Source: Promethearchaeota archaeon (GTDB taxonomy: Archaea; Asgardarchaeota; Lokiarchaeia; Sigyniarchaeales; SOKP01). From it: DNA of 53,361 nt. The translations under genes were made by a program, and so were the position numbers. The stretch is from the NCBI GenBank assembly GCA_030615235.1, contig JAUWZR010000002.1, positions 1 through 53,361 of the forward strand, in the 5' to 3' direction. How positions within the stretch are numbered: position 1 is the stretch's first letter; every line of letters starts with the position of its first letter. Positions 1 through 37,226 of the stretch are shown one piece after another. The notes below the pieces were generated by a model. It did not search any database and had not been told where the DNA came from. It saw nothing but the letters and a program-made list of their open reading frames with translations.

Positions 1-755
1 ATTTGGTTGTTTAAATCCAAACTCGTCCATAACAAGCAGTTGTGATCGTATTTAACTGCTAATGGAATTACTTCCTCCCACGTAGCTTTGTCTGCAGCAG
101 AAAGCATCAATACTTCGCTTTCAGTAGCAGCCGCAGTGACTTTAAATAACTCTACATCCTTTTCTTTATTTCCAGAACAACCAATAATGACCGGGACATC
201 AACTGCTTGCAATATATCTTCTAAATATTTTAGAGATTGAGAAACAGGTGCATCGCCCATTCCAGGATCGATTTCTAGAGAGTGGAAGGTTATACTTTCT
301 GCGCCAAATTTATTAACCGCTAATTTTGCCCATTCTGCGGGATCTCCTAAGACTTCTCCATACTCTTGCTTAATTGGTTTTGGTAACATCATTTTAGAGC
401 CCATATCGAAAACATCATAAGTAACTAAAGGAGGATTTGGGTTTCTTTTATCAAGACCCAGAAAGTTATAGAACGGAGGTACCTTTTCTCCGCCAATGAC
501 GGCTTTTTTACCGTTAGATCTAATGAATTCAACAGTTTCAATTTGTCCCGGAAATTCTAAATCTAGAGAAAATTTTGTTGGGGTCCATTCTGCCTTTCCG
601 ATACCAGGAAGAATCGCTTGTGCTGCAGATTGAATAATACCAGGTAACATTTGAAATTCTAAGTACTCAGCAAAAAGTTCTACGTCTTGTAATTCAATTT
701 CTTCCGTTTCCTTCATTAGTTTAGCTAATTTTTTACTAATTTCATCGAACGCCAT
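1..755 (-). CDS. cdhD: Acetyl-CoA decarbonylase/synthase (CODH/ACS) delta subunit, N-terminal about 251 codons; the 3' end runs off the window
   Basis: Hand translation of the minus strand from ATG at 755-753 gives MAFDEISKKLAKLMKETEEIELQDV...GGEKVPPFY...DVFDMGSK...EWAKLAVNKFGAESITFHSL...LQAVDVPVIIGCSGNKEKD...KYDHNCLLWTSLDLNNQ with no stops to position 1. These blocks match my recollection of CdhD/AcsD TIM-barrel proteins. The ORF is absent from the track because it is open at the window edge. Confidence 0.7.
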   Translation of the reverse strand, partial: MAFDEISKKLAKLMKETEEIELQDVELFAEYLEFQMLPGIIQSAAQAILPGIGKAEWTPTKFSLDLEFPGQIETVEFIRSNGKKAVIGGEKVPPFYNFLGLDKRNPNPPLVTYDVFDMGSKMMLPKPIKQEYGEVLGDPAEWAKLAVNKFGAESITFHSLEIDPGMGDAPVSQSLKYLEDILQAVDVPVIIGCSGNKEKDVELFKVTAAATESEVLMLSAADKATWEEVIPLAVKYDHNCLLWTSLDLNNQ

Positions 756-1193
756 TTTTCTTCACTTAATTTCTTTATATAAATTCTATAAATAGGCTAT
801 TGGTGAATTAAATTTAAAATTATGTGATGGGAACTGATCAAGGATCGTCTAAAATGTTGATTTTGTGAGATTTGGTAAAGAAAATTATTAATAAATTTTC
901 AAAATCAGCAATCATTTAAATATAACATACTTCGGAATTCGTCAAACGATAAGAAATTACATCTAGATAGTTTTTAATTTTAAAATAAGGAGATTTACTG
1001 AATTTCAATTTTTGAACGATATTTTTCGATAATTTGTAGGTTGAGCCTAATTACTACCTCATAAAAAAATAGCATAGATTTAAAAAAAGGTGCTTTTTTA
1101 ATTTTATCTGTATATTAAATACAAATAAAAATAATAATAAAAACAAAAAATACAAATAAAATTAATTATTCTAAAATAAAAGGGGAAAAAAGT

Positions 1194-2294
1194 TTGAGTA
1201 CAGATATAGAAAATGTGTTATCATCCATCCAAGATATTCTTTTTGTTATATCATTTGACTATGAAATTTTGTTTGCGAATGAACAGGCATCGATAAATTT
1301 TGAGACAGATTTGATTGGCAAGACATGTTATAAGGTACTTCTTAATAAAGATCAACCATGTGAAATTTGTGCTATAGCAGAATTTAAGGCAAAAGATGTT
1401 AGTAGTTTTCGATTTGAAAAAGAACTAATCTTACCTTCTTTGAAAAAAGAATGTCATTTTGACATTGGCAGTACGATGATTGAAGAATATAAGGGAGTTA
1501 AAGCAATAGTTGAAGTCTTACGAGACGTTACCAAGCGCAAGAAGCAAGAGAGAGAAATAGAATTATTATTATCAAGTTTAAAAGATATTCTTTTTGTTAT
1601 ATCATTTGACTATGAAATTTTGTTTGCAAATGATGAGGCATTAAAAAGTTTTGAGACAGTTTTGATTGGCAAGACATGTTATGAAGTTCTTCTTAAAAGA
1701 GATCAACCCTGTGAAATTTGTGCAATAGCAGAATTTAAGGCAAAGGGTGTTTGCAATTTTCGATTTGAAAAAGAACTAATCTTACCTTCTTTGAAAAAAG
1801 AATGTCATTTTGACATTGGCAGTACGATGCTTGAAGAATATAAGGGAGTTAAAGCTATAGTTGAAGTTTTACGAGATATTACTGAGCGCAAGATGCAAGA
1901 GCGAACAATTTTGCAACTATCGACTCCAATTATAAAAATATGGGATAATATTCTGGCAGTTCCACTTATTGGAATTCTTGATAGTAGACGCGCTAAATTA
2001 TTTACTGAAACTCTTTTAAATGCGATCGTAAAAACAGGATCTAAAATTGCAATAATCGACGTAACTGGAGTTAGCTTTATTGATACTCAAGTAGCAAATC
2101 ACCTAATAAAAACACTTAATGCTGTAAGGCTTCTTGGGGCTAAATCAATTGTTACTGGTATAAGACCAGAAATAGCACACACACTAGTTGACTTGGGCGT
2201 TTCTCTCGGAGATATAGTTACGAGTTCCCAACTTTCTGGAGGATTGAATTACGCATTTAAAATGCTTGGATATACTTTAAATAATAAAGGGTAA
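1194..2294 (+). CDS. rsbR: RsbR-like stressosome sensor: two tandem Cys-rich PAS-like domains plus a C-terminal STAS domain
   Basis: The C-terminus LSTPIIKIWDNILAVPLIGILDSRRAKL...IAIIDVTGVSFIDTQVANHLIK...GAKSIVTGIRPEIAHTLVDLG is a typical RsbR STAS domain with the DT phospho-site context. The N-terminus holds two about 117-aa repeats, each with GKTCY...DQPCEICA...KKECH. Start is TTG preceded by aaaggggaaaaaag. It is the first gene of a tightly packed operon. Confidence 0.85.
   Translation: MSTDIENVLSSIQDILFVISFDYEILFANEQASINFETDLIGKTCYKVLLNKDQPCEICAIAEFKAKDVSSFRFEKELILPSLKKECHFDIGSTMIEEYKGVKAIVEVLRDVTKRKKQEREIELLLSSLKDILFVISFDYEILFANDEALKSFETVLIGKTCYEVLLKRDQPCEICAIAEFKAKGVCNFRFEKELILPSLKKECHFDIGSTMLEEYKGVKAIVEVLRDITERKMQERTILQLSTPIIKIWDNILAVPLIGILDSRRAKLFTETLLNAIVKTGSKIAIIDVTGVSFIDTQVANHLIKTLNAVRLLGAKSIVTGIRPEIAHTLVDLGVSLGDIVTSSQLSGGLNYAFKMLGYTLNNKG
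1218..1915 (+). repeat. Intragenic tandem duplication of about 351 nt (2 copies) encoding the Cys-rich PAS-like module of RsbR
   Basis: Copy 1 spans about 1218-1568 and copy 2 about 1569-1915. Long identical runs are visible, for example gatattctttttgttatatcatttgactatgaaattttgtttgc and cgatttgaaaaagaactaatcttaccttctttgaaaaaagaatgtcattttgacattggcagtacgatg. The peptides are about 85 percent identical by eye. Confidence 0.9.
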
Positions 2295-2301
2295 ATATTA
2301 T

Positions 2302-2682
2302 ATGAGTCAGAAGATACCTATAATTAAGATAAAGGAAGATTTAATAGTATCCTTTCTTTCTGACATTGATGACATAGCAGCTTTAAAATTACAAAGTGGT
2401 TTACTTCAAAGAATTCATGAGGGTAAGATAACTGGAGTATTGATTGATCTAACAGTCCTTGATATGGTAGATTCTTTCTTAGGCAGATTGATATCAAATA
2501 TTGCTCGCTCATCGGCAATAATGGATGTAAAAACGGTTGTGGTTGGAATTCAGCCAGCAGTCGCCATCACACTCGTAGAGTTGGGGCTTAAATTAGAGGG
2601 TACTTCTCTTGCTTTGAATGTGGAAGATGGTATTGCGCTTCTAAATGAATTAAAAAAGTCGAAATATGATTTTGAGATATAA
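2302..2682 (+). CDS. rsbS: RsbS-like single-domain STAS protein (stressosome scaffold/antagonist)
   Basis: 126 aa. VLIDLTVLDMVDSFLGRLI contains the conserved DS phospho-serine context, and VVVGIQPAVAITLVELG is the typical STAS C-terminus. It starts 7 nt after rsbR and its stop abuts the next ATG. Confidence 0.85.
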   Translation: MSQKIPIIKIKEDLIVSFLSDIDDIAALKLQSGLLQRIHEGKITGVLIDLTVLDMVDSFLGRLISNIARSSAIMDVKTVVVGIQPAVAITLVELGLKLEGTSLALNVEDGIALLNELKKSKYDFEI

Positions 2683-3105
2683 ATGAGGAGACAAAAAATT
2701 CTTCAGAATATCCAGATTGAAAATAATATGGACCTTGTTAAGGCAAGACAAAGCATTAGAACCATTGCTTTAGACCTGAATTATGGCATCGTAGATCAGA
2801 CAAAATTGATTACTGCAGTAAGCGAATTAACGAGAAATGTCCTTTTATACGCCGGGAAAGGTGAGATCATCATAGAATTAATAGAGACCAGTACAAAAAA
2901 AGGTTTAAGGATTACTGTAACTGATAAAGGTCCAGGAATTCCAGATGTTGACCTTGCAATAACAGAAGGATTTTCCACGAGTAAAGGACTAGGTAAAGGT
3001 CTAAGCGGTACTAAAAAGTTAATGGACGATTTTTCTATTCAAACTGAGGTTGGAAAAGGAACAGAGGTTGTTATCATAAAATGGACGGACTCAGACAAAT
3101 TGTGA
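2683..3105 (+). CDS. rsbT: RsbT-like switch serine kinase (GHKL/HATPase_c, anti-sigma-factor kinase family)
   Basis: 140 aa. N-box-like AVSELTRNVLLYA, G1/G2 boxes ITVTDKGPGIPD and GFSTSKGLGKGLSGTKKLMD, and the expected position after rsbR-rsbS. Confidence 0.85.
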   Translation: MRRQKILQNIQIENNMDLVKARQSIRTIALDLNYGIVDQTKLITAVSELTRNVLLYAGKGEIIIELIETSTKKGLRITVTDKGPGIPDVDLAITEGFSTSKGLGKGLSGTKKLMDDFSIQTEVGKGTEVVIIKWTDSDKL

Positions 3106-4133
3106 TTCCTATAAACGAAATTCATCATGTAGGTATCGCTATAAGAAAAATTTCTAAATTAGCAGAAGAATTAGGATTTTCAGAAAAAGAACTTAGCGAA
3201 ACTTCGATTGTTGTATCTGAATTAGCCAACAACTTGATTGTACATGAAGCCATAGAAGGAAAAATTATATGCTCGTTGATTGAAGAAGGGACGAATAAAT
3301 ATATTCAAATAATTAGCGAGGATGAAGGTCCAGGAATTGCAAATGTCGAAACAGTAATGGAAGATGGATATTCAACAAATGAAACTCTTGGAATAGGTCT
3401 AGGTGCGATAAAAAGGCTTATGAGCGATTTCAGAATCACTTCAAATATTGAGAATGTTAAAACTGCAAGAAATAAAAACATAGTGAGCAAAATTGGGACA
3501 AAAATTATCACTAAAAAATATCTTTCTCAAAGAGAGGATACGGCAGATATATCTCAGAGTAAAATTAGATTTGGAATATTTAGTAGAAGCAAATATGGGG
3601 AAAAATATAATGGAGATAATTATTTTCTGCAACGTTTTGAAGATAAAACGATTGCAGCAGTAATTGATGGTTTGGGGCATGGTCAGCATGCATCAGAAGC
3701 TTCTACAGAAGCTCGGTTATACCTTGTCGAAAATTATAAAAAACCTCTTGATGTAATAATTAATGGCTTGCACGCGAGATTGAAGAACACCCGTGGTGTA
3801 GTTATTTCAATAGCTTTAATTGACAATAAAAAAGGTGAATTGGAATATGTTGGGATTGGAAATGTATTAACAAGGGTTTTTAATTCACCTACCCCTATAA
3901 ACCCCGTTAAATTCAGTGGATCTTTAGGATATATACTTAGAAATTTTAAAATATTTCATTACCCTTGGATTAAAGGTAATATCATAATAATGACAAGCGA
4001 TGGTATATCAGAAGGATACTATACAAATAAAGATCCAAATTTCCTTAAAAGACACCCAATATTAATTGCTAATACTATACTAAAGGAATATGGAAATATC
4101 CATGATGATGCAACCGTCTTAGTAGGAAAATAA
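3081..4133 (+). CDS. Fusion protein: N-terminal HATPase-like (RsbT/RsbW-like) domain plus C-terminal PP2C/SpoIIE-type phosphatase (RsbX/RsbU-like)
   Basis: N-terminus VVSELANNLIVHE...ISEDEGPGIAN...GYSTNETLGIGLGAIKRLM. C-terminus GDNYFLQRFEDKTIAAVIDGLGHGQHASEAS...IIIMTSDGISEG...HDDATVLVGK, which are SpoIIE/PP2C motifs. An alternative start is GTG at 3102, forming a GTGA overlap with the rsbT stop. Confidence 0.8.
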   Translation: MDGLRQIVIPINEIHHVGIAIRKISKLAEELGFSEKELSETSIVVSELANNLIVHEAIEGKIICSLIEEGTNKYIQIISEDEGPGIANVETVMEDGYSTNETLGIGLGAIKRLMSDFRITSNIENVKTARNKNIVSKIGTKIITKKYLSQREDTADISQSKIRFGIFSRSKYGEKYNGDNYFLQRFEDKTIAAVIDGLGHGQHASEASTEARLYLVENYKKPLDVIINGLHARLKNTRGVVISIALIDNKKGELEYVGIGNVLTRVFNSPTPINPVKFSGSLGYILRNFKIFHYPWIKGNIIIMTSDGISEGYYTNKDPNFLKRHPILIANTILKEYGNIHDDATVLVGK

Positions 4134-4135
4134 AA

Positions 4136-5020
4136 ATGTTGAATGAAGAGAACAAAGATAATATGGAAGATTTATACGAAATTAAGGCTCGTTTAAAACA
4201 AGAGATTGCTAAGCGTATCCAATTGGAGAATGAATTAAATATTGCGTTAGATGAATTGAACCTTTCAAATACTGAATATCTATTTGCGATAAGAAAACTA
4301 GAAGGATACAAAGACAGTCTTAATACAGCTTATAACAGAGCAGAATTTTACAAAGATTTGTGTAGTCACGACATTAATAACATTTTACAAGCCATTTTGT
4401 CTGGAATGCAATTATGTGAGATGAATCTTGATGATCCACATGAAATCAAATCTATTATAAAAATTATAACAGATCAAGTTATAAGAGGGGCAAATTTAAT
4501 TTCAAATATTCGCAAATTATCTCAAATTGAAGGAACTAAGATATCTCTTAAACGAACTAAAATTCGTAATATCTTAAAAAAATCGGTTGATTATATAAAA
4601 AAATCTTACACAGATAAAAAAATAAACATTAAAGTCGATTCAGTTAGCGAACAACTATATATTCAGGCAAACGAACTGATCAGTGATGTTTTTGAAAACA
4701 TTCTTATTAATGCAATAAAACATAATAAAAGTGCAATTCTAGAAATTGAAGTTATGATATCGAGAGAACAAAAATTAGGTGTAAATTATCTTAGATTTGA
4801 ATTTCAGGATAATGGTCTAGGAATAAGCGATCCTCGTAAAGAAAAAATCTTTCAAAGAGGGTACAGCAAAAATAAAACTGCTCAAGGAATGGGATTAGGA
4901 TTGTCTCTCGTGAAAAAAATTATTGAAAATTATAAGGGAGAAATATGGGTTGAAGATAGAGTTATTGGAGACTATTCAAAAGGAAGTAATTTCGTTCTTT
5001 TAATTCCAGAGGTGAACTAA
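4136..5020 (+). CDS. Soluble histidine kinase (coiled-coil plus DHp H-box plus HATPase_c), no sensor domain
   Basis: H-box FYKDLCSHDINNILQAI, N-box VFENILINAIKHN, G boxes FQDNGLGISD and GMGLGLSLVKKIIENYKGEIWVED. It starts 2 nt after the phosphatase stop. Confidence 0.85.
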   Translation: MLNEENKDNMEDLYEIKARLKQEIAKRIQLENELNIALDELNLSNTEYLFAIRKLEGYKDSLNTAYNRAEFYKDLCSHDINNILQAILSGMQLCEMNLDDPHEIKSIIKIITDQVIRGANLISNIRKLSQIEGTKISLKRTKIRNILKKSVDYIKKSYTDKKINIKVDSVSEQLYIQANELISDVFENILINAIKHNKSAILEIEVMISREQKLGVNYLRFEFQDNGLGISDPRKEKIFQRGYSKNKTAQGMGLGLSLVKKIIENYKGEIWVEDRVIGDYSKGSNFVLLIPEVN

Positions 5021-5040
5021 AACGGAGGTTAAAAAAGGAG

Positions 5041-5430
5041 ATTAAAACGGAAAAAATATTTATCGTTGATGATGAACCTATACTTCAAATTTTTTATAAA
5101 AAAATTTTAAATTTAAATGGCTTTGAAGTGGCGGGTATCGCAGAAAATGGGGAAGAAGCCATTAACATGTTCAAATCGTTTTCGAATAAACCAAAGATAA
5201 TTCTGATGGATCATCGGATGCCTGAGAAGACTGGAATTGAAGCCACAAAAGAAATTTTGCAAATTGATAAACGAGTAAAAATTATATTTTTAAGTGCAGA
5301 TGTCAGTATTAAAGAAGAAGCGTATGCAATTGGAGCTTTTAGCTTTTCGGAAAAACCATTTACGATTAAATATTTAATAAATGAAATTAACAAAGCTTTA
5401 GAATGCTATAAATTCTCCTCATCTAATTAA
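5041..5430 (+). CDS. Single-domain CheY-like response regulator (receiver); N-terminus extended beyond the tracked ORF
   Basis: The tracked ORF (GTG 5128) lacks the acidic pocket. The same frame is open from 4990 and reads IKTEKIFIVDDEPILQIFYKKILNLNGFEV, giving a complete REC domain (DD pocket, phospho-Asp in ILMDHRMP, Lys in SEKPF). No ATG, GTG or TTG lies in frame between 4990 and 5128. ATT at 5041 follows ggaggt/aaggag, so the 5' boundary is uncertain. Confidence 0.6.
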   Translation: MKTEKIFIVDDEPILQIFYKKILNLNGFEVAGIAENGEEAINMFKSFSNKPKIILMDHRMPEKTGIEATKEILQIDKRVKIIFLSADVSIKEEAYAIGAFSFSEKPFTIKYLINEINKALECYKFSSSN

Positions 5431-5469
5431 TTTTATTAAAGAGTAAGCTTTCTAATTTTTTTAAATTAG

Positions 5470-5535
5470 ATTGAAATTATCCTAAGAGAGTATGGAAAAG
5501 CCCACGATGACGCAACTATTTTAGTAGGAGAATAA
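5470..5535 (+). pseudogene. Fragment: last about 21 codons of a PP2C/SpoIIE phosphatase paralog
   Basis: It translates to IEIILREYGKAHDDATILVGE*, compared with ...NTILKEYGNIHDDATVLVGK* at the end of the intact gene (ends 4133). An in-frame stop lies immediately upstream at 5467-5469. Confidence 0.6.
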
Positions 5536-5543
5536 GGATAAGG

Positions 5544-5708
5544 ATTGGTAGTGCAATTATTAGAAAAGAGAAGGGTGTTGTCAAAGTAAGACAAGACATT
5601 AAGATAATGTCCGATAAAATAAGCTTCAATCATACCGATGCTATAAAAATAATTACAGTAGTTGGTGAGTTAACAATTAGCCTCTATGAACAACTCTATG
5701 GAGAAATT
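5544..5708 (+). pseudogene. Fragment: first about 55 codons of an RsbT/RsbW-like switch kinase, truncated
   Basis: Translation ...AIIRKEKGVVKVRQDIKIMSDKISFNHTDAIKIITVVGELTISLYEQLYGEI aligns with intact RsbT IQIENNMDLVKARQSIRTIALDLNYGIVDQTKLITAVSELTRNVLLYAGKGEI. The similarity stops exactly where the inverted cdhD-like sequence begins. Confidence 0.5.
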
Positions 5709-5805
5709 CAAAATATTCAGCAAATAAATCTACATCTTGAAGTTCAATTTCTTTTGTGTCTTTCATAAATTCAGCTAATTTTTTGCTTAATTCATCAAAG
5801 GAAAT
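5703..5805 (-). pseudogene. Fragment: first about 35 codons of a cdhD paralog, with the start codon lost (ATG to ATT)
   Basis: The minus strand reads ISFDELSKKLAEFMKDTKEIELQDVDLFAEYFEF, compared with MAFDEISKKLAKLMKETEEIELQDVELFAEYLEF at 755-651. Nucleotide similarity continues into the upstream non-coding stretch (about 5806-5850 versus 756-810). Confidence 0.7.
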
Positions 5806-6083
5806 TTTATATCACTTTAATTAATATAATTTTTATTGATGGTGAAAAAAACATTATAAAAAATACAAAATATGCTTGGTGAAAACCTTAATGTTTTATA
5901 AGACAAATATGTGGATTTTCGTCTTTTTAAATTTGTAGATGAAATATTAATATTATTAGTGTAGATCTATAAAGATCAAATTCAAGAAATGTAACTAGTA
6001 TAATTTATTTAAATTTTAATATTTAAGACGTTATGTATTTTAAAAATAGGAATATCATTGATTTAACTAAAAACTGATTAATA

Positions 6084-7055
6084 ATGAGACGAAAAACCAT
6101 TTTTATTGTAATAATAATCTGTGTAGTTGTTGTTAGTGTACCAGCAATTTTTTGGATAATAAATAATGAAAATGAAGGTCCTGGTGATAATAATCCTGCT
6201 GTTTCAGGATCTTATGTAGTAAACCATAATTATGCTCATCTGGAGGATTTAAAGAGCATACCAATTGAATGGATAGAAGAGGCTAAAAAAAGCCTTAATA
6301 TTGCTTATGGTCATACTTCTCATGGGAGTCAATTAACTTCAGGCATGGCTAATTTAGATGATTTTATGGGAGGGAATGATATTTATTTATACGGCTCAGG
6401 TGGTGCAACTAATGACACAATTCTTGAGTTTTATGATTTTCCTGGTGGATTTGGTGGTGCCTTAACAACAACTAGCGCAAATGACCTCGGTAACCCTAAT
6501 GATGATGCTTGGGCTGCTGCAACAGAAGAATATTTGGACCATCCGAATAATCCTGGAACCAATGTGATTATGTGGTCTTGGTGTAATATAGCTGGACATA
6601 ACATCACGAGATACCTATCACATATGGAGAATTTAATTTCTGCATACTCTGCTGGTGGTTCAAAAGGACGAAATTCAACGAATGAGGTAAATTTTGTGTT
6701 TATAACGGGTCATGTTGATGGACAAGGGATAAATGGGACTAACAATTTACAAAATGGACTTATTCGAGAACACTGTATGACATATAATAGAACTTTATAC
6801 GATTTTGCTGATATTGAAAGTTATGATCCAGACGATAATTACTTTTTAGATTTAAATGTAGCTGATGATTGTAGTTATGATGGGGGGAATTGGGCATTAG
6901 AATGGCAATCTACTCATGATGGCGTTAATACAGAACCGAATGGAGGAGAATGGTACGCATGTAGTTCTGCTCACTCTGAGCCTTTAAATGCAAACTTAAA
7001 AGCTTATGCTTCGTGGTATCTTTTTGCCAGGCTAGCTGGTTGGGATGGTAACTAA
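6084..7055 (+). CDS. Secreted or membrane-anchored protein of unknown function (N-terminal signal/anchor)
   Basis: N-terminal hydrophobic segment KTIFIVIIICVVVVSVPAIFWII. The mature part is rich in G/N/D/W with motifs YGHTSHGSQ, VIMWSWCN and FITGHVDG. I do not recognise the family. Confidence 0.5.
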   Translation: MRRKTIFIVIIICVVVVSVPAIFWIINNENEGPGDNNPAVSGSYVVNHNYAHLEDLKSIPIEWIEEAKKSLNIAYGHTSHGSQLTSGMANLDDFMGGNDIYLYGSGGATNDTILEFYDFPGGFGGALTTTSANDLGNPNDDAWAAATEEYLDHPNNPGTNVIMWSWCNIAGHNITRYLSHMENLISAYSAGGSKGRNSTNEVNFVFITGHVDGQGINGTNNLQNGLIREHCMTYNRTLYDFADIESYDPDDNYFLDLNVADDCSYDGGNWALEWQSTHDGVNTEPNGGEWYACSSAHSEPLNANLKAYASWYLFARLAGWDGN

Positions 7056-7134
7056 TTTTTCTTTTTACATTGAAAAAATTATCAAAACAAATTCTTTTTA
7101 TTTTTTAATAGAATAATTTAAAAACAGAATCTGG

Positions 7135-7650
7135 TTAAATTGTTCTCATTCTTCTCTTATAAAGAATAAGAACTAATCCTACTGTTAAGAATAATGAAAA
7201 AATTAATAGCTCTACTTGAAATCCTGGTATGAATGGAAGGTAATATCTCGTTAGCTTGTCTTTATTGGATTTTAAGAAGAATGAATCTGGCCCATTGTTA
7301 ATTAAAATTAATTCAATGTAATAAATTTTTGATTGTGATACTGTATAGTTGATATATGGATTGTCATCTATACTGTAATTTAAGGCTACCTGGAAAATAA
7401 TTGGGTTAAGAGTTTTATCATCGTTTACGTAAGAGTCAGTAGGGCGTGAACCGAATAGAAAAAGCGTAAAGTTCCCATCTCCAGTATGAGTTACATTAAT
7501 TTCAATATTCTCCCCCTCTTCTAAATCTATTAGAAAAAAAACGAAAATACCATCGTTTATGTTGTCAGGATACTCAAATCCAAAAATGCTTACTATTGGA
7601 ACGAGAACCATTAGAGCGAGAATAGGAACTGTAAGATATTTACGCTTCAT
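7135..7650 (-). CDS. Hypothetical surface protein with an N-terminal signal peptide and a C-terminal TM anchor
   Basis: N-terminus MKRKYLTVPILALMVLVPIVSIFG. C-terminus LLIFSLFLTVGLVLILYKRRMR. The beta-rich middle part is not assigned to a family. Confidence 0.45.
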   Translation of the reverse strand: MKRKYLTVPILALMVLVPIVSIFGFEYPDNINDGIFVFFLIDLEEGENIEINVTHTGDGNFTLFLFGSRPTDSYVNDDKTLNPIIFQVALNYSIDDNPYINYTVSQSKIYYIELILINNGPDSFFLKSNKDKLTRYYLPFIPGFQVELLIFSLFLTVGLVLILYKRRMRTI

Positions 7651-7878
7651 AGTTTAGCATACTAAGTAATTTTAATTTTGATATAATGTTGAACTTAACT
7701 TAAGCTTTATTGAAATTTTAGACTTAATCTTTTAATTGCTTACAAGAATTAAAATAGGAACTAATGTAATTATAGATGCATATTCTCTTTAATTTTGAAA
7801 TCGTAATTTTTTTCAATAAGGGGACAATTAATCTATAAAGACATATAATAAATAGAAAACATAGCAAGTGTTAACAAA

Positions 7879-8760
7879 ATGGGTAAGATTTTATTAGAAA
7901 ATTTGGATTTTGAGAAGCACCATGGCTTAGGTAACGATTATATAATAATTAATAATCTTAAATGGAATATTCCAGATGATAAAAAAGCAGATTTAGCAAT
8001 AAAATTATGTAAACACCATTTTTCAGTCGGAGCAGATGGAGTTTTATTTGTTTGTCATCCAAAATTGACTGAAGTGAGGATGAAAATGTTTAATCCCGAC
8101 GGCTCTCAAGCAGAAATGTGTGGAAATGGAGTAAGATGTTTTGCAAAATACATTTATGAAAATGATATATATGCGAAAGAAGAGATTGAAATTGAAACAC
8201 ATAAAGGTATCGTGGTCGCTAAACTTAAAGTTGTAAAAAATGAAGTTGAAACAGTAACTATTGATATGGGTCCTCCAGTTTTAGAATGTGAAAGCATTCC
8301 AGTAAATTTGGAGAGCCTTGTTAATCGTTGTGTAAACGAATCTATTGTGGTATTAGATAAGATTTTCAATTTCACGGCGGTATCAATGGGCAATCCTCAC
8401 GCGGTTATTTTTACAAGAAATGTCATAAACGATGAAAATTTAAAGAAATATGGAGTTGTAATTGAATCTAATAAAATTTTTCCTAAAAAAACTAATGTGG
8501 AATTTGTAAATGTGTTATCCAAAGAAGAAGCTGTTCTAAGAGTATTTGAAAGGGGTGTAGGAGTGACGAATTCCTGTGGAACGGGCTCTTGTGCTGCAGT
8601 GGTAGCGGGAACAATTTTAGGATTATTTAGTGAAAACATTCCAGTAACCGTACATAACGATGGAGGTGACTTGAAAATCACTTATAACGGTAAAACGGTA
8701 TTTATGGAAGGTCCCACTGTAAAAGTGTTTAAAGGAGTTATAGACAGAATTGAATTTTGA
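7879..8760 (+). CDS. dapF: Diaminopimelate epimerase
   Basis: Motifs HGLGNDYIII, EMCGNGVRCFAKY, SMGNPHAV and ERGVGVTNSCGTGSCA (two catalytic Cys contexts). Confidence 0.9.
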   Translation: MGKILLENLDFEKHHGLGNDYIIINNLKWNIPDDKKADLAIKLCKHHFSVGADGVLFVCHPKLTEVRMKMFNPDGSQAEMCGNGVRCFAKYIYENDIYAKEEIEIETHKGIVVAKLKVVKNEVETVTIDMGPPVLECESIPVNLESLVNRCVNESIVVLDKIFNFTAVSMGNPHAVIFTRNVINDENLKKYGVVIESNKIFPKKTNVEFVNVLSKEEAVLRVFERGVGVTNSCGTGSCAAVVAGTILGLFSENIPVTVHNDGGDLKITYNGKTVFMEGPTVKVFKGVIDRIEF

Positions 8761-8818
8761 TTTAATGTTGGTATAATATTATTATATTAATTGTAATGCT
8801 TAAGTTGAGGTAACGAAA

Positions 8819-10132
8819 GTGAACTATTCAGAATGGCTAAATGTGAAATCCTTAGAATATCGCGAAGATGTGCTTTATTTTGCAGGTAAAAATACACTCG
8901 AAATTTCTAAAGAATATGGTACACCTATTTATGTGATTAACGAAAATACAATACGAGAACGCTATAAAAGTTTAAAAATTCTACTTAATTCTGAATACGA
9001 GAATAACAGAATATATTATGCTGTTAAAGCAAACTCAAGTTTATCAATCTTAAAAATATTTCATTCAGAAGGGGCGTTCTTTGATTGTACATCTATGGGT
9101 GAAATATATACATGTTTTAAAGCGGATATATCTCCTGAAAGGATAATATATACTGGAAATATGTTCACTGATGAAGACTTTACATTCGCAGTTGAAAATA
9201 AAGTTCTAGTAAATCTTGACAGCGTAAGTCAATTAAAAAGATTAACGAAAATTCACGACCATCTTGGGAAGGAAAAAATAATAATTTCTTTTAGAATAAA
9301 CCCCGAGTTTGGTGCTGGACACCACATTCATACAATTACAGCAGGAAAAACGATTAAATTTGGTATCCTAGAGGAACAAGCGATCGAAGCGTTTAGCAAA
9401 GCAAAGGAAAATGGTTTTGAGAAGTTTGGAATTCATCAACATATTGGATCAGGAGTGTTGAACGCTCAAGATTTCAAAAAACCAGTAGAGAAATACATTA
9501 GCATCATCAAAAAAATTGCTAAGTCTCTCGAGATTAAATTTGAATTTATCGATTTTGGTGGCGGTATGGGTATTCCTTATCGTCCCTTAGAGGAACCTTT
9601 AGATTTTGATATTTACAAAGAAGTGGTAATAAAACCCTTTAAACAATTGATAAATTCTGAGGATCTTGGCGAACCTATTTTTAAAATTGAACCCGGGAGG
9701 TATTTAACTGCGGAGTCAAGCATTCTTTTAACGCAAATAAACACGATCAAAAACAATGGATATAAATTATTTGCGGGAGTTGATGCTGGGTTTAACACAT
9801 TGTTAAGACCTACTTTATACAATTCCTATCATCATATAATATCGTGTAATAAGAAAAGTAAAGAATCAACATTAATTTATGATATCACGGGGCCAATCTG
9901 CGAGTCTGGTGATATACTCGGCAAGAATAGAGAATTAAATAAGTTAGAAGAGAAGGATGTACTTGCAATTCTAGATGTGGGTGCATATGGCTTTACGATG
10001 AGCAGTAATTATAATTCTAGACCCAGATCCTCTGAAATTTTAATCAATAATGGAAAAATTTTTAAAATTAGAGAAGCTGAGAGTCTTGATGACTTACTAA
10101 AACTACAAATTATACCAGATCACTTAAAGTAA
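8819..10132 (+). CDS. lysA: Diaminopimelate decarboxylase (PLP-dependent, fold type III)
   Basis: YYAVKANS (PLP Lys), HQHIGSG, DFGGGMGIPY, EPGRYL, GPICESGD and DVGAYG. GTG start. It is adjacent to dapF. Confidence 0.9.
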   Translation: MNYSEWLNVKSLEYREDVLYFAGKNTLEISKEYGTPIYVINENTIRERYKSLKILLNSEYENNRIYYAVKANSSLSILKIFHSEGAFFDCTSMGEIYTCFKADISPERIIYTGNMFTDEDFTFAVENKVLVNLDSVSQLKRLTKIHDHLGKEKIIISFRINPEFGAGHHIHTITAGKTIKFGILEEQAIEAFSKAKENGFEKFGIHQHIGSGVLNAQDFKKPVEKYISIIKKIAKSLEIKFEFIDFGGGMGIPYRPLEEPLDFDIYKEVVIKPFKQLINSEDLGEPIFKIEPGRYLTAESSILLTQINTIKNNGYKLFAGVDAGFNTLLRPTLYNSYHHIISCNKKSKESTLIYDITGPICESGDILGKNRELNKLEEKDVLAILDVGAYGFTMSSNYNSRPRSSEILINNGKIFKIREAESLDDLLKLQIIPDHLK

Positions 10133-32190: not shown

Positions 32191-33720
32191 TTGTCAAATT
32201 CAGTTAAAAAATCGAGAATTTCAGAGAAAATGTTTAACTCTCTCTTTAAAAGTATCCCTTTTCCTTCGTATGTTTGGAAAATAGTTGAAAATAATTTAAT
32301 TTTGATTGAGTATAACACTTCAGCTGAAAAAATAACTAATGGTCAAATTATAAATGATTTAGGAAGAAAAGCATCAGATATTTATAAAGATCAATCCGAG
32401 TTTTATGAAGGACTTAGTCGATGCACCTCCTCTAAATGTAGAGTTTCTAAAGAAATTAAAACTGTTTGTATGACTACTGGAGAAGAAATTTATATCTCGG
32501 TTGAATATAGTCATATTCCTCCTGATTTAGTTTTAGTTCATACTGAAGATATTACGGAACGGAAGAATACAGAACAAAAATTGAAAGATTCCGAAGAAAA
32601 ATATAAAGATATGGCCGAACTTTTACCAGATATTATCTATGAGATTGATAAAAGTGGAAAGTTTACTTATGTTAATCCTGCGGGTTATGAAAAATTTGGT
32701 TATCAAAAAGATGAAGTTATAGGAAAAATGAGTATGATTCAAGCTGTTCTACCTGAACAAAGAGAAAAATTAATCAGAAACGCAAAAAGATTCTTTTCAG
32801 GGGAATTAATTGAGCCAGGTATTTATACCTTTCAAAAAAAAGATGGATCTACTTTTTTTGGGAGGTTACATTCACGACCTATCTATAAAGAAGGAAAGAT
32901 TGTAGGGATAAGGGGAGTACTTCATGATATTCATAAATTAATTGAAATTGAAGAAAGATTAAAAAAATTAAATTTGGAGTTAGAACAAAGAGCTGAGGAA
33001 AGGACAAATCAGTTGTGGAAAGCATCGGAAGATTATCGATTACTGGTAGACCACGCGCCTGTAGGAGTATTCTTAGCAGATCAGGAAGGAAACATTAAGT
33101 TAGTTAATCCTCAATTATTGAGAATCCTTGGTTCACCATCTGCTGAGGCCACAAAACAAATTAATCTTTTAACCTTCCCGTTATTAAAAAAGGCTGGTAT
33201 CTCGGCAGCAGTCGAACAGTGCCTTGAGAAGAAAGAATCAAATATCAGTGAATTCTTCTATACATCAAAATGGGGGAAAGATTTTTGTGGCAGATTATAT
33301 CTAAACCCTGCTCGCGATACTTCCAATCAAATAATTGGTATACAAGGTATTGTTGAAGATATTACCGAGTATAAAAAAATTGAGCAAAAAATCAGAGAAT
33401 CTGAAGAGCAATATCGAACTATGATAAATTCTTTAGCCGATCCTCTAGAAGTCGTAGACAGAGATTTAAAGATTCTTCTGATCAATCCCGCCTTTGAATC
33501 TTGGCTCGAAGATTTAGGTATTGAAAAGGATGTTGTAGGCCGAACTATTTTCGAAGCGTTTCCATTCTTATCAAGTGAAATTCGCAAGGAATATAAGCAA
33601 ATTTTCGATACTGGAGAAATTCAATTTACTGAAGGGAGCACATTTGTAGATGGTAAAGAAATCATTACTGAAACGCGTAGAATTCCAATTTTTAAGGAAG
33701 GTCATGTTAATCAGGTTTAG
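32191..33720 (+). CDS. Multi-PAS sensor segment; probably the N-terminal part of a frameshifted giant histidine kinase
   Basis: About four PAS units are separated by the typical linkers DITERKNTEQKLKDSEEKY and DITEYKKIEQKIRESEEQY. The ORF ends inside a PAS domain (IPIFKEGHVNQV*) with no output domain. Confidence 0.7.
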   Translation: MSNSVKKSRISEKMFNSLFKSIPFPSYVWKIVENNLILIEYNTSAEKITNGQIINDLGRKASDIYKDQSEFYEGLSRCTSSKCRVSKEIKTVCMTTGEEIYISVEYSHIPPDLVLVHTEDITERKNTEQKLKDSEEKYKDMAELLPDIIYEIDKSGKFTYVNPAGYEKFGYQKDEVIGKMSMIQAVLPEQREKLIRNAKRFFSGELIEPGIYTFQKKDGSTFFGRLHSRPIYKEGKIVGIRGVLHDIHKLIEIEERLKKLNLELEQRAEERTNQLWKASEDYRLLVDHAPVGVFLADQEGNIKLVNPQLLRILGSPSAEATKQINLLTFPLLKKAGISAAVEQCLEKKESNISEFFYTSKWGKDFCGRLYLNPARDTSNQIIGIQGIVEDITEYKKIEQKIRESEEQYRTMINSLADPLEVVDRDLKILLINPAFESWLEDLGIEKDVVGRTIFEAFPFLSSEIRKEYKQIFDTGEIQFTEGSTFVDGKEIITETRRIPIFKEGHVNQV

Positions 33721-33758
33721 TTATTACGAGAGATATTACTGAGCGAAAAGGTGCAGAA

Positions 33759-36700: not shown

Positions 36701-37226
36701 TTTGGTCAAAAAAACAATAGATATTTCGCTTATTGAGTCAGAAAGCATATCTTTTAGGAGGGAAAGAGAGGATATTGGGAAACTTATTAATAAATGCGTG
36801 AATGATTTGATATATTTAGCTGATAAAAGAGAACTGTCATTAGAACTTAATGTTCAAGAGAACATATTTATTCAAATTGATAAAAATAAAATTACAGAAG
36901 TAATAAAAAATATCCTATCCAACGCAATAAAAAACACTCCTCAAAAAGGAATTATTTCCATAAGCTTAAAGAGAATGAAGAAACATTTAGAGATCTCAAT
37001 AAAAGATACAGGTGTAGGATTTACTGAAATTGAATTACAAAGAATTTTTCAAAAATTTGGAAAAATTGAAAGATACGGCAAAGATTTCGATGTTGATATA
37101 GATGGTCCAGGACTTGGATTATATCTAGCAAAACAATTTATTGAAATGCATGGAGGAAATATTTGGGCAGAATCCAAAGGATTAAATAAGGGAGCAACTT
37201 TTACGATTGAATTACCAATTAATTAA
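33759..37226 (+). CDS. Multi-PAS/GAF histidine kinase (C-terminal part; the frame is open from 33711)
   Basis: Repeated PAS units with DIT(E/K)RK linkers, a GAF-like segment (aa about 520-660), the H-box LITRASHEFKTPLTSI, and HATPase_c motifs NAIKNTP, IKDTGVGF and GPGLGLYLAKQFIEMHGGNIW. Upstream of the ATG the frame reads SGLVITRDITERKGAE, the end of a PAS domain. Confidence 0.8.
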   Translation: MKIKESEERLSAFINSAPDSIFIWDSELNLVDCNKNGFNMISMGQNREDLIGQNILEIAPDVKEKGRYDKYMEVLKTGKPFYIDGVVPHPKFGDIIISIRTFKVGEMFGMITTDITKRKKAEQELIESEENYRLLTENINDLIVVINTRFQIEYVNEEVVKKIIGNTKKDILGKNILDFVHPDDKVMALNSLLKGIKDKEGIEEMRVANLKGQYIWFEVKGGAFINNKGELKGILIARDITERKQAEQKLRESEERYRTLVETMTDGLAVIDENNYFTYVNISFSKMIGYSYDELLNTHLFNYLDKKNQSIVEEQLIERRKGEAQPYELVWTRKDRQKVYTILAPKPLIDAEGNYIGSFGVITNITERIITGKKIKESEAKYRNLFESSPNMIVLLNLNGKIIDVNPATLTKYGFERKDFIDKDFKELNNYLPGNLPLLAKKFKKLLTKGVLEPIELPFHTKDRNIIWVNLQGSLVKIGGETYIQTVIQDINERKEAELKIKESEEKVKTLNDTFLEFTDDPFKNIQLLVDAAGKLLMSDCAAYNKIIEVNGNKILKTIAIWQEPPNYEREDNPIGHICTDIINMNREDVTIIKDLDMTKYVKTDPNVQKYRLKQYCGIAVKLNNEPVASFCVIYKENREISEVDKDIIRILAQSASIEEQRLYSYQKIKDSEIKFKLIFESIPDLFFLIHKDTTILDFRGREEDLYVPSEKLINHKLRDLVPKDIGDLHYIATKKTLLTKQPQIIEYGLSIRDVYRHFEARHLYFSEDQVAVFVREITASKKAEQELIESEEKYRQLFENSPEIILLANPDGVVLEYNSAAEKAFGFRKDEVIGRYYYEFGVFDSDQISIIEKRYKETLRVKQKKFEEFKVKRKDGSSFWILYQSTIVKLGNKPYILTLAQDISEIKKAEKLIEEELIKLKKLDDIKNELITRASHEFKTPLTSILASAELFLNLFKGVYTEEMKQLIEIIYEGGKRLENLVKKTIDISLIESESISFRREREDIGKLINKCVNDLIYLADKRELSLELNVQENIFIQIDKNKITEVIKNILSNAIKNTPQKGIISISLKRMKKHLEISIKDTGVGFTEIELQRIFQKFGKIERYGKDFDVDIDGPGLGLYLAKQFIEMHGGNIWAESKGLNKGATFTIELPIN

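Follow-up and report, generated by a model that had tools for sequence, protein, structure and literature searches.

How a partner-switching module of the stressosome type might work in an archaeon, and what it would act on, is the question raised by a cluster of six genes in a 53,361-nt stretch of DNA from a Promethearchaeota archaeon (hereafter the window). The original prediction had read these genes as RsbR, RsbS, the RsbT switch kinase, a HATPase-like-PP2C fusion (X), a sensor-less coiled-coil histidine kinase (HK) and a lone receiver, tightly packed in this order. Six co-directional ORFs on the plus strand were indeed found at positions 1194-5430, each where it had been predicted, and all Pfam matches of the six proteins lie above the Pfam cut-offs. 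The archaeal origin of the DNA was also borne out, since the best named matches of the CDC48 gene in the window are Asgard only (81-88% identity), and genes for actin, TFIIB, Roadblock, Longin-Arf and RagA are found in the loci of the relatives; the organism is an Asgard archaeon of the Promethearchaeota type. The features of the locus are as follows.

756..1193, no strand: AT-rich divergent intergenic region of 438 nt between cdhD (minus strand, start at 755) and rsbR
1194..2294, plus strand: rsbR, 366 aa (Pfam PAS_4, E=5.5e-11; STAS, E=1.1e-13)
1231..1901, plus strand: tandem duplication that doubles the PAS sensor domain within rsbR (351 nt, 1.9 copies, 91% match; Tandem Repeats Finder)
2302..2682, plus strand: rsbS, single-domain STAS antagonist, 126 aa (Pfam STAS, E=1.8e-9)
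2683..3105, plus strand: rsbT, GHKL serine/threonine switch kinase, 140 aa (Pfam HATPase_c, E=7.6e-15)
3081..4133, plus strand: X, 350 aa (Pfam HATPase_c_2, E=1e-8; SpoIIE/PP2C, E=1.4e-6)
4136..5020, plus strand: HK, HisKA-type, soluble, 294 aa, with His78 (Pfam HisKA, 27.4 bits against a cut-off of 26.9; HATPase_c, E=8.4e-20)
5024..5040, plus strand: Shine-Dalgarno-like purine-rich motifs GGAGG ... AGGAG, seen in the sequence, with GGAG ending 6 nt before codon 5047
5047..5430, plus strand: stand-alone CheY-like receiver, 127 codons (Pfam Response_reg, E=2.2e-14)
5456..5462, plus strand: candidate archaeal oligo-T terminator, a T7 run 26 nt past the receiver stop, from sequence only

Most of the predicted spacing was recovered: rsbR and rsbS are 7 nt apart, the stop codon of rsbS abuts the start of rsbT (TAA-ATG), and X and HK are separated by 2 nt. 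Between HK and the receiver lie 26 nt. The GTGA overlap at 3102 proposed as the start of X did not stand, because the N-terminus MDGLKQIVIPI read from ATG 3081 is conserved in relatives, and with this start the T-X overlap is 25 nt. The intergenic region 756..1193 is the presumed promoter region of the cluster, a sigma-70 promoter scan being inapplicable to archaea, and the T7 run may be the terminator that closes it.

The first three proteins match the RsbR, RsbS and RsbT types specifically. In RsbR a pair of tandem Cys-rich PAS domains is followed by a linker helix and then by the C-terminal STAS domain, whose best PDB matches are RsbR of V. vulnificus (7O0I_B, E=4.4e-31) and of Listeria (7B0U, 1.7e-30); it scores about 1e-30 against RsbR chains and only 1e-15 to 1e-18 against RsbS chains. 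RsbS, in turn, finds Listeria RsbS 6QCM_A (E=2e-26) and B. subtilis RsbS 6JHK_A (2.7e-26), and reaches only about 1e-6 with RsbR chains. RsbT, with the motifs SELTRN (N-box), DKGPG (G1) and GLGKGLSG (G2), is 56% identical (E=4e-43) to the genuine RsbT of Kurthia zopfii, which comes from a canonical R-S-T-RsbU-RsbV-RsbW-SigB-RsbX operon, and shows no similarity to RsbW of that same operon (E=3.7); its relatives at 60-65% are named 'serine/threonine-protein kinase RsbT' by JGI. By these matches the three are not merely STAS or anti-sigma proteins of a generic kind. The phospho-acceptor contexts expected in RsbR (DT) and RsbS (DS) are real as well: Thr298 (fiDTqva) and Thr330 (iaHTlv) of RsbR are aligned with both Thr sites of Listeria RsbR, and Ser58 of RsbS (mvDSflg) falls on the RsbS serine, a position occupied by Ala in chain 9O4R_a.

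In the sensor head of RsbR, a Cys triad (C45-x10-C56-x2-C59) of the first PAS domain is repeated at C162/C173/C176, and it is invariant in five relatives. Two PAS domains are also present in RsbR of the relative L090 (366 aa by ORF call, 362 aa as annotated), while one-PAS forms of 248-256 aa occur in L085, L087, L095, L102 and L103.

The fourth protein is the expected fusion, in which an N-terminal GHKL kinase paralogous to RsbT (residues 1-147, 36.5% identical to T) is followed by a PP2C half (residues 160-350) that is of RsbX type by sequence and fold. Its only PDB PP2C sequence matches are MtX 3ZT9 (5.1e-17) and RsbX 3W40 (1.9e-14), and the AF2 model (pLDDT 84.5) superimposes on MtX with a TM of 0.93 and an rmsd of 1.8 A in Foldseek, the GHKL half matching SpoIIAB 1TIL; residues 151-158, the linker, are disordered in the model. 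Both the ATP-binding residues (E47, N51, D81xGxG, G104xGxG) and the metal-binding Asp179, 196, 307, 342 and 343 of the PP2C half are invariant in 55 homologues.

The histidine kinase proved to be sensor-less, as anticipated: in the AF2 model (pLDDT 85) residues 2-96 form one continuous helix running into the DHp domain, and the best Foldseek matches are HK853 and YycG. In 18 homologues H78 and the N and G boxes do not vary. RsbU_N was absent from this kinase at E<=1 in the profile search, so how RsbT would reach it is a step that we infer. Its helix bears at residues 40-45 an ELxxSN motif, part of ELNLSNTEYL..KLE, a degenerate form of the ELxETNxGLxAL that marks bacterial post-X kinases (found in 29 of 43 of them, and in none of 30 other kinases of the same loci); Asgard post-X kinases keep only ELxxSNxE...LE. 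In its core HK resembles two kinases of the window outside the module (48-49%) as closely as it does the module kinase of HM4_B22 (53%), and for this reason it may be a locally recruited paralogue.

The lone receiver is complete only when read from position 5047, where the initiation codon in the window is ACG. The first canonical start, GTG 5128, was rejected, as the resulting ORF lacks beta1 and the DD pocket; read from upstream, the REC domain is complete and finds NCBIfam CheY_Halo (1.3e-17), with D8, D9, D55, S83 and K103 intact. The same GGAG motif precedes an ATG in L087-L092, this start being ATG in L090-92 and L087-89 and ACG in the window, L103, L102 and L085/86. In two of the ACG relatives, L102 and L085/86, the receiver is frameshifted or truncated despite intact R, S, T, X and HK. 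The dN/dS of the receiver is 0.36 (against L103), and pairwise values across the module are high (0.2-0.84), a rough estimate given the small dS. The ACG start and the decay in two close relatives make the output to the CheY-like receiver the weakest link of our reading, and with the receiver so weakly anchored in this lineage HK may also signal to other receivers.

Conservation of the gene order was checked in relatives. The order is repeated in Asgard contigs at 91% nucleotide and at about 62% protein identity, where RsbR has a different sensor head, and the same six genes follow each other in L090-92 (91.5% nt), L103 (91.1% nt), L087-89 and L001-5, the last a Promethearchaeota MAG with 53-67% aa identity to the window module. 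A histidine kinase gene also comes after X in the further Asgard-context contigs L096-L101. Among bacteria, the exact order R-S-T-X-HK-RR occurs in four loci of three phyla (L008, L021, L023, L037). In a tally at ORF level, a kinase gene comes next after X in 41 of the 53 fused-X loci, from many phyla; among the sampled loci no gene accompanies R-S-T more constantly than X. Moreover, in Oxalobacteraceae, Bdellovibrionota and the Asgard-context L098 and L100 the kinase after X carries an RsbT-like GHKL domain fused at its N-terminus. An order shared by independent Asgard contigs and many bacterial genomes goes far beyond what chance would produce. The cluster is confirmed as real and kept in relatives, yet many bacteria share its layout, and the literature already mentions copies in archaea.

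Taken together, we regard the locus as probably a horizontally acquired, sigma-free stressosome-type module rsbR-rsbS-rsbT-rsbX, in one cluster with a minimal two-component pair. By homology, R and S would together build a STAS core to which the switch kinase T is bound, and the Cys-rich PAS heads of R would read a signal, probably redox, O2 or metal in view of the invariant C-x10-C-x2-C triad; on the other side, recent work in B. subtilis reportedly casts doubt on RsbR proteins as the actual stress sensors (PMC11821858). Upon the signal, T would phosphorylate Ser58 of S and Thr298/Thr330 of R, residues that are conserved, and be released. Free T may then act on the sensor-less HK via the long N-terminal helix continuous with the DHp domain, as suggested by the conserved adjacency and by the relatives with an RsbT-like domain fused to such a kinase, altering His78 autophosphorylation and phosphotransfer to Asp55 of a receiver that would work by protein-protein contact. 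X, whose catalytic residues are present, would reset the system with its RsbX-type PP2C half, and its N-terminal RsbT paralogue, with invariant ATP-binding motifs, may serve as a second kinase and/or docking domain.

It is also conceivable, if unlikely, that R, S, T and X function as a partner-switching module whose output is not the adjacent HK and receiver, the target of released T lying elsewhere in the genome; the pair would then be an input controlling X or T, or an unrelated two-component system sharing the operon. RsbU_N, missing from HK, is the only established RsbT-docking domain, an RsbT-kinase interaction was not found in Vibrio (PMC9237108), and the ACG start and loss of the receiver, the paralogues of the HK core within the window and the additional kinases and receivers directly past the cluster in L087, L090 and L103 speak for this reading. 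A kinase nonetheless follows X in 41 of 53 fused-X loci, RsbT-like domains are fused to such kinases in many genomes, the intergenic gaps are only 2 and 26 nt, and HK, having a helix and no sensor of its own, needs a protein partner for its input.

Less probable still, in our opinion, is that X is the primary effector, a bifunctional Ser/Thr kinase-phosphatase activated by T as RsbU is by RsbT, with substrates beyond R and S, HK being one phospho-substrate of X, with the Ser/Thr conserved in its ELxx[ST]N helix as acceptor. The invariance of both catalytic centres, the constancy of X beside R-S-T and the Ser or Thr kept ahead of Asn from bacteria to Asgard speak for this; against it, the PP2C half is of RsbX/MtX and not of RsbU type, and neither an RsbU-like helical linker nor RsbU_N precedes it, residues 151-158 being disordered in the model. 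RsbX serves in B. subtilis as a feedback phosphatase acting on R-P and S-P. We give the slimmest chance to small RsbV/RsbW-like 1:1 complexes in place of a megadalton particle, for which 'stressosome' would be a misnomer. Sequence does not tell whether a particle forms, and a long branch (stem 0.71) separates the Asgard clade of the R+S+T tree from characterised stressosomes, but the STAS domains of R and S align over their full length to the Vibrio, Listeria and Bacillus core proteins, and TIGR00377, the family of single-domain anti-sigma antagonists, reaches only 23-25 bits (cut-off 53), far below the stressosome matches.

In B. subtilis and Listeria monocytogenes the stressosome (RsbRA-RsbS-RsbT, with RsbX) feeds RsbU-RsbV-RsbW-SigB. 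The cluster shares with them the RsbR-, RsbS- and RsbT-type proteins with aligned Thr/Thr/Ser phospho-sites, and the likeness of its PP2C half to RsbX 3W40, but it has no RsbU, RsbV, RsbW or sigma genes, a His-Asp pair as outputs, and a phosphatase gene straight after rsbT that encodes an extra kinase domain. The premise of the original prediction, that RsbRST modules are bacterial in the classical case and mostly feed sigma-B, no longer agrees with the literature: only Bacillales have the operon linked to sigB, and sigma-free rsbRSTX modules with varied outputs, including two-component systems, are widespread, 'even in some archaeal species' (PMC9237108, PMC10014275).

The minimal locus of V. 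vulnificus and V. brasiliensis (PMC9237108, PMC4976288, PMC10014275) has the same R-S-T-X order, likewise without a sigma factor or RsbU/V/W and with two-component genes (VvD1/VvD2) directly downstream on the same strand, and the best solved match of the window RsbR STAS is RsbR of V. vulnificus (7O0I_B). The Vibrio host is bacterial, whereas ours is an Asgard archaeon; the sensor head is a haem globin in Vibrio and two Cys-rich PAS domains in the window; Vibrio RsbX is described as a single-domain PP2C, in contrast to the GHKL-PP2C fusion; and VvD1 and VvD2, thought to control c-di-GMP, are larger than the 294-aa kinase and 127-aa receiver-only protein. An interaction of RsbT with VvD1 could not be demonstrated (PMC9237108). 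The Moorella thermoacetica module MtR-MtS-MtT-MtX with the diguanylate cyclase MtG (Quin et al., 2012, as cited in PMC4976288 and PMC12143880) is, as far as these citing papers describe it, also sigma-free with X directly after T, and MtX 3ZT9 is the closest structure to the PP2C half of the window X; its output, according to the same accounts, is a GGDEF enzyme with RsbU_N for RsbT, a domain that the window output protein does not have.

RsbT acts through helical linkers, on kinases too (PMC12143880). RsbU_N-histidine kinases follow rsbRST(X) in Proteobacteria (PMC9237108, PMC12143880), and we found them after stressosome genes in Methanosarcina L069 and the gammaproteobacterium L037 (RsbU_N 7e-15 and 6.5e-10). 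Like the window, these loci have a stressosome module and then a cytoplasmic histidine kinase, a precedent for RsbT control of dimeric effectors via helical linkers; they differ in that their kinases begin with RsbU_N, X is PP2C-only (L069) or in its own clade (L037), and the R+S+T tree clade is another. Rv1364c of Mycobacterium tuberculosis (PAS-PP2C-RsbW-like kinase-STAS; 3KE6) joins, like X, a PP2C and a GHKL anti-sigma-type kinase in one polypeptide (E about 3e-8 for the X model against 3KE6 chains in Foldseek), but with the PP2C before the kinase, its own STAS and PAS, a sigma-F link and a place outside any R-S-T cluster. The uncharacterised bacterial fused-X modules R-S-T-(GHKL-PP2C)-HK(-RR) of Terriglobia L008, Bryobacterales L021, Desulfotomaculum L023, Nitrospinota L025 and others, for whose X the NCBI annotation reads 'ATP-binding SpoIIE family protein phosphatase', share with the window the domain architecture, gene order, fused X and short helix-HK, at 30-53% identity for R, S, T and X and about 20-28% for HK, and are set apart by the strict ELxETNxGLxAL of their kinases, where those of Asgard have only ELxxSNxE...LE.

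The profile search suggested with the original prediction was run on the ORFs of the window, and all six products of the cluster (1194-5430, forward strand) passed the curated Pfam cut-offs. The genes and their Pfam domains are:

1194-2294, forward strand: R (RsbR-type), two PAS_4/PAS_9 units, then STAS
2302-2682, forward strand: S (RsbS-type), STAS, 126 aa, 7 nt downstream of R
2683-3105, forward strand: T (RsbT-type), HATPase_c protein of 140 aa
3081-4133, forward strand: X (GHKL-PP2C fusion), HATPase_c_2, then SpoIIE/PP2C
4136-5020, forward strand: HK (histidine kinase), HisKA, then HATPase_c
from 5047, forward strand: receiver (RR), complete domain, placed by sequence and domain extent

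The close packing anticipated for these genes was seen in the ORFs, with 7 nt between R and S, S and T abutting as TAA-ATG and 2 nt between X and HK, followed by 26 nt between HK and RR. Between T and X, where a GTGA overlap had been considered possible, we found a 25-nt overlap instead; ATG 3081 is the most likely start of X, because the N-terminus MDGLKQIVIPI read from it is kept in seven relatives. Co-transcription of rsbRSTX with HK-RR is putative and is supported by the tight spacing and by a run of seven T after the last gene. An Rfam scan gave no RNA element within or near the cluster, and Pfam detected no RsbV-type antagonist, RsbW anti-sigma kinase or sigma-70-family gene among the six products and the neighbouring ORFs in 1-9000.

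Three gene fragments were observed directly 3′ of the cluster:

5479-5532, forward strand: C-terminal end (18 codons) of a second PP2C, 72% to that of X
5577-5675, forward strand: RsbT-like N-terminus of about 33 codons, 39%
5704-5805, reverse strand: start of a cdhD copy (34 codons), 74% at the amino acid level and 77.5% at the nucleotide level vs 653-771

From their sequences, they look like the scar of a recombination with a second module or with a duplicated cdhD flank. Elsewhere, a restriction-modification methylase gene of the Eco57I/TaqI_C type lies at 48788-50668 on the reverse strand, and in two relatives (loci L001, 4389-6263, and L085, 1910-3787) similar genes lie near the module, at a distance of a few kb.

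The identification of the first three products as RsbR, RsbS and the RsbT switch kinase was borne out by subtype-specific matches. The STAS domain of R (residues 234-363) gave as top PDB matches the RsbR chains 7O0I_B of V. vulnificus (4.4e-31) and 7B0U_A of Listeria (1.7e-30), and also 6QCM, and it matched RsbS chains at 1e-15 to 7e-18, ten or more orders of magnitude weaker than RsbR. The top matches of S were RsbS 6QCM_A (2e-26) and 6JHK_A (2.7e-26), with RsbR chains at about 1e-6 to 4e-6. In the PDB-chain alignments, T298 of R (fiDTqva) aligns to vvDTmva, T330 of R (iaHTlv) to iaQTiv and S58 of S (mvDSflg) to miDSfia, the last column being Ala in chain 9O4R_a. The DT and DS contexts are conserved as predicted, since T298, T330 and S58 align with the corresponding residues of the Listeria and Bacillus proteins; we take these columns to be the known phospho-sites, T171, T205 and S59 of B. 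subtilis.

A PDB sequence search with T returned no RsbT match, the only match being SpoIIAB (1.7e-7). Because the PDB held no sequence-matching RsbT, we used as control for the identity of T an operon of Kurthia zopfii that reads, by Pfam, R-S-T-RsbU(RsbU_N+PP2C)-RsbV-RsbW-SigB-RsbX. T is 56% identical to the RsbT of this operon (E=4e-43) and shows no relation to its RsbW (E=3.7). In NCBIfam no RsbR, RsbS or RsbT equivalog was reached, and the top matches fell far short of their cut-offs (YtvA_fam, 77 bits vs 250; spIIAB, 58 vs 135).

For X, the expected HATPase-like-PP2C fusion was recovered both in Pfam and in an AF2 single-chain model (pLDDT 84.5) with two domains and a disordered linker at residues 151-158. 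The sole PDB PP2C sequence matches of its PP2C half were MtX, the RsbX-type phosphatase of Moorella thermoacetica (3ZT9, 5.1e-17), and B. subtilis RsbX (3W40, 1.9e-14). As given by Foldseek, the model superposes on MtX (TM 0.93, rmsd 1.8 Å) and on RsbX (TM 0.81), and its N-terminal half on SpoIIAB. The PDB ranking of R and S, the control for T and the PP2C matches of X therefore make the first four genes an rsbR-rsbS-rsbT-rsbX module in the strict sense, in which X bears an extra GHKL domain.

The RsbX-type fold of the model argues for a reset role of X, which departs from classic RsbX by the added N-terminal GHKL domain. This half is a paralogue of T, with 36.5% identity within the window. 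In a GHKL tree of 173 rows and 128 columns the X-fused domains group together (3 label changes vs 47 expected under shuffling), and the relation among T, X_N, split T2 and kinase-fused copies was left without resolution. Both halves look catalytically competent, because the ATP-binding motifs (E47, N51, D81-x-G-x-G, G104-x-G) and the PP2C metal ligands (D179, D196 in DGLGHG, D307, D342-D343) are invariant in 55 fused homologues. The family comprises 2,592 database clusters at E<=1e-10, carries the NCBI name 'ATP-binding SpoIIE family protein phosphatase' and includes Hodarchaeota and Promethearchaeia MAGs.

HK had been described as a sensor-less coiled-coil kinase, in agreement with its lack of sensor and transmembrane domains and with one long N-terminal helix in the AF2 single-chain model (pLDDT 85), where residues 2-96 run unbroken into the His78-bearing DHp helix. 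The core that follows is standard and HK853-like (top Foldseek matches HK853 and YycG), and H78, N188/N192, D225xGxG and G251xGxG are invariant in 18 homologues. RsbU_N (PF08673) was not found by Pfam in HK residues 1-95 at E<=1, and the modelled helix is continuous and not a helical bundle; the same or a sister search recovered RsbU_N in the positive controls, namely the kinases of Methanosarcina (7e-15) and of a gammaproteobacterium (6.5e-10) and Kurthia RsbU (1.3e-22). This domain starts the kinase after rsbX in Methanosarcina sp. KYL-1 (L069, 8273-8620) and in the gammaproteobacterium (L037, 8440-8800). Such an RsbU_N-kinase after rsbX is a second, different coupling of the stressosome to a histidine kinase, in archaea too.

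The motif L..EL.ETN.GL.AL..ELE was present in 29 of the 43 non-Asgard kinases located directly after X and in none of 30 other kinases from the same loci (Fisher p=5e-10); a second repeat, EL..TN.EL...TLELE, often follows it. The loci with the helix motif belong to bacteria and one haloarchaeon and include L008, L021, L023, L025, L031, L045, L046, L058, L067, L073, L075 and L080, with T-HK fusions in L024-L079. The strict bacterial motif was matched by no Asgard kinase examined and is not claimed for them; the Asgard kinases keep a weaker ELxxSNxE...LE, which reads E40-L-N-L-S44-N45 in the window and ELNISNEEVM..MTELE in L098. Furthermore, an RsbT-like GHKL domain is fused N-terminally to the helix-kinase in Oxalobacteraceae, in Bdellovibrionota and in the Asgard-context contigs L098 and L100. 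From these sequences, the N-terminal helix of HK is a probable contact site for an RsbT-like domain.

Two paralogues of the HK core within the window (37331-38056 and 52386-53081, 48-49% identity) are nearly as close to it as the module kinase of Promethearchaeota archaeon HM4_B22 (53%), and the HK family is therefore expanded in these genomes. Cytoplasmic PAS-histidine kinases are abundant in the window (37322-39520 and 52383-53321 on the reverse strand, 32191-37226 on the forward strand), and the two paralogous cores belong to kinases of this kind.

The lone receiver proposed as the sixth gene proved to be a complete domain with its full set of active residues when read from 5047. From the first canonical start (GTG 5128) the ORF lacks beta1 and the acidic pocket, and from 5047 it includes D8, D9, D55, S83 and K103. 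Positions 5047-5049 read ACG, 6 nt after GGAG, and the relatives L090-92 and L087-89 read GGAG(A)TTAAA-ATG-GAAAAA. A sequencing error was ruled out by the recurrence of ACG at this place in three other relative assemblies, L103 (3930-3945), L102 (~7948) and L085/86 (L085 ~10301). The receiver of L103 is intact, with 127 codons, and its gene caller, like the ORF list used here, gives only a 100-aa product; the other two are cut by a frameshift, at about residue 67 in L102 and at about residue 45 in L085/86. The recurrent ACG is thus a state that these assemblies have in common, and in some of them the gene has then decayed. We also ruled out that HK and RR are joined by programmed frameshifting, because HK ends (stop at 5018) ahead of the A-run and the reading frames are incompatible with it.

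ACG either functions as a near-cognate start, with GGAG well spaced before it, or marks an early step of gene loss. Between the two intact ACG receivers (window and L103) dN/dS is 0.36, and for T, X and HK it is 0.60-0.83; these Nei-Gojobori values among close relatives are high and noisy at small dS, and support only that constraint on the receiver is at least as strong as on the neighbouring genes. Given this value and the presence of all catalytic residues, we think that the receiver continues to be produced, though less of it, with initiation at ACG or at a near-cognate codon nearby. In the lineage of the window it is the pathway's least secure part. In the pairwise comparisons of the window with L090 and L103, T, X and HK gave 0.6-0.84 at dS 0.06-0.22, which could reflect either fast evolution of signalling proteins or the bias of a simple method in an AT-rich genome.

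In three relatives (L090, 5268-7612; L103, 4425-6785; L087, 5984-6862) the receiver is followed by one or two additional short kinases, and the same stretches hold a duplicate of about 840 nt, made of the 3′ part of the module kinase and a decayed receiver start, at about 90% to window 4328-5173. This part of the locus has been duplicated repeatedly and may have undergone gene conversion.

Among the Asgard relatives R varies in its sensor head, which is RsbRD_N in deeper lineages, one Cys-rich PAS in L085, L087, L095, L102 and L103, and a pair of PAS in the window and in L090. The doubling is due to a tandem duplication of 351 nt (window 1231-1901, 1.9 copies, 91% match), common to L090 and absent from the five loci with one PAS. 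C-x10-C-x2-C is invariant in every PAS copy examined, unlike a fourth Cys-His pair; given this triad, our guess is that the input of R is probably redox, oxygen or metal.

The archaeal host named in the original prediction is an Asgard archaeon, as documented by CDC48 matches and by neighbouring genes in relatives. The named top matches of a CDC48-type ATPase (41991-44306, reverse strand) are only Asgard, at 81-88% identity, from Promethearchaeota/Lokiarchaeota and Hermodarchaeota, with Hodarchaeota, Thorarchaeota and Odinarchaeota lower; the module loci of relatives adjoin actin, TFIIB, Roadblock, LSM, L37e, Longin-Arf and RagA genes. About 50 database clusters match T at 80-93% identity, and a second group does so at 60-65%. 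The gene order, on whose conservation the prediction depended, is kept in L001-5, L087-92, L103 and four bacterial loci. The same six genes in the same order are found in L090-92 (91.5% nucleotide identity over 4.6 kb), L103 (91.1%) and L087-89, and also in HM4_B22 and three sister assemblies (amino acid identity: R-STAS 62, S 67, T 62, X 60-64, HK 53 and RR 66%). The Asgard-context contigs L096-L101 have R-S-T-X and then a kinase, and in L085/86 and L102 the receiver is decayed or missing from the six-gene order.

Outside Asgard, an RsbT-profile scan with one genome per species identified 80 loci in many bacterial phyla, Methanosarcina and one haloarchaeon. By ORF-level annotation, a fused GHKL-PP2C gene follows T in 55 loci, and in 41 of 53 fused-X loci (ORF-level tally) a kinase gene comes directly after X. 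The GHKL and PP2C parts are separate genes in Chloroflexota, and Methanosarcina, Kurthia and others have PP2C alone. The exact R-S-T-X-HK-RR order occurs in Terriglobia (L008), Bryobacterales (L021), Desulfotomaculum (L023) and a gammaproteobacterium (L037). In an unrooted ML tree of concatenated R-STAS, S and T (68 loci, 368 columns), the six Asgard rows, flagged for compositional bias, group in a single clade (SH-aLRT 100) with a long stem. Apart from them, Methanosarcina nests with Rhodospirillales and Gammaproteobacteria (96-100) and the haloarchaeon lies inside an Acidobacteriota-rich clade (100). These three separate positions indicate at least three unrelated lineages of the module in archaea, for which several acquisitions from bacteria would be the simplest reading of the unrooted tree.

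Sequence, structure prediction and synteny establish which families the proteins belong to, that catalytic and phospho-acceptor residues are intact, that the adjacency of the kinase is conserved and that RsbU_N is absent. By analogy with characterised bacterial systems, whose core of R and S is a megadalton pseudo-icosahedral assembly, R and S would form a STAS core holding T; a signal at the R sensor heads would lead T to phosphorylate S58, T298 and T330 and then to leave the core, which the PP2C half of X would reset. The adjacency of the genes, the sensor-less HK and the fusions suggest that the released T, or the T-like half of X, may act on the N-terminal helix of HK and thereby set the level of His78 to Asp55 phosphotransfer. 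Such an action would fit the published model in which RsbT rigidifies the helical linkers of dimeric effectors, kinases included (PMC12143880). A receiver-only protein must exert its output by protein-protein contact, the prevailing output mode of archaeal two-component systems (PMC5847659).

A wider reading, which taken as a whole we consider rather unlikely, is that the helix of HK, with ELxx[ST]N at its core, may serve RsbT-type switch kinases as a portable receiver that does not need RsbU_N. This helix and the two-enzyme X would then mark out an uncharacterised 'two-kinase' class of stressosomes coupled directly to His-Asp signalling; in Asgard, such a class would connect a Cys-based (Fe-S, Zn or redox) PAS sensor with a protein-protein output and need no sigma factor. 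If true, the wiring step that is missing for most non-Bacillus stressosomes would be supplied.

According to published work, only Bacillales have the eight-gene sigB operon, and the rsbRSTX module of four genes occurs widely in bacteria 'and even some archaeal species', with downstream modules that include two-component systems such as V. vulnificus VvD1/VvD2, for which an RsbT-VvD1 interaction was not demonstrable (PMC9237108, PMC10014275). The module of the window belongs to this published sigma-free kind, because rsbRSTX with two-component outputs, archaea included, has already been described. In the searchable literature, whose scope may miss key reviews, no paper combined 'stressosome' with Asgard terms, and neither the GHKL-PP2C form of X nor the helix signature of the post-X kinases was found described; priority is not claimed for any of these.

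Most stressosome loci lack a link to sigma-B, and to the question of how their signal passes on this locus adds an Asgard, sigma-free example. The relatives narrow the question to three elements: a sensor-less long-helix kinase, an RsbT paralogue fused to RsbX or elsewhere to the kinase, and a Cys-rich PAS head. In Asgard lineages (of Promethearchaeota type and, by annotation, Hodarchaeales) a bacterial partner-switching module persists together with a receiver-only response regulator, the predominant type in archaeal two-component systems. Current concepts are unchanged, the architecture being common to many bacteria and archaeal occurrences having already been noted.

Compared with known systems, the cluster is without the RsbV, RsbW and sigma-70-family genes of the SigB cascade, and HK is without the N-terminal RsbU_N of the RsbU_N-coupled outputs (RsbU, MtG, RsbU_N-HK). 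With the Vibrio-type RSTX and two-component module it shares a histidine kinase and a receiver immediately downstream on the same strand and, as in two-component systems of the HisKA class, HK has the H, N, G1 and G2 boxes and the receiver the DD, D, S and K residues.
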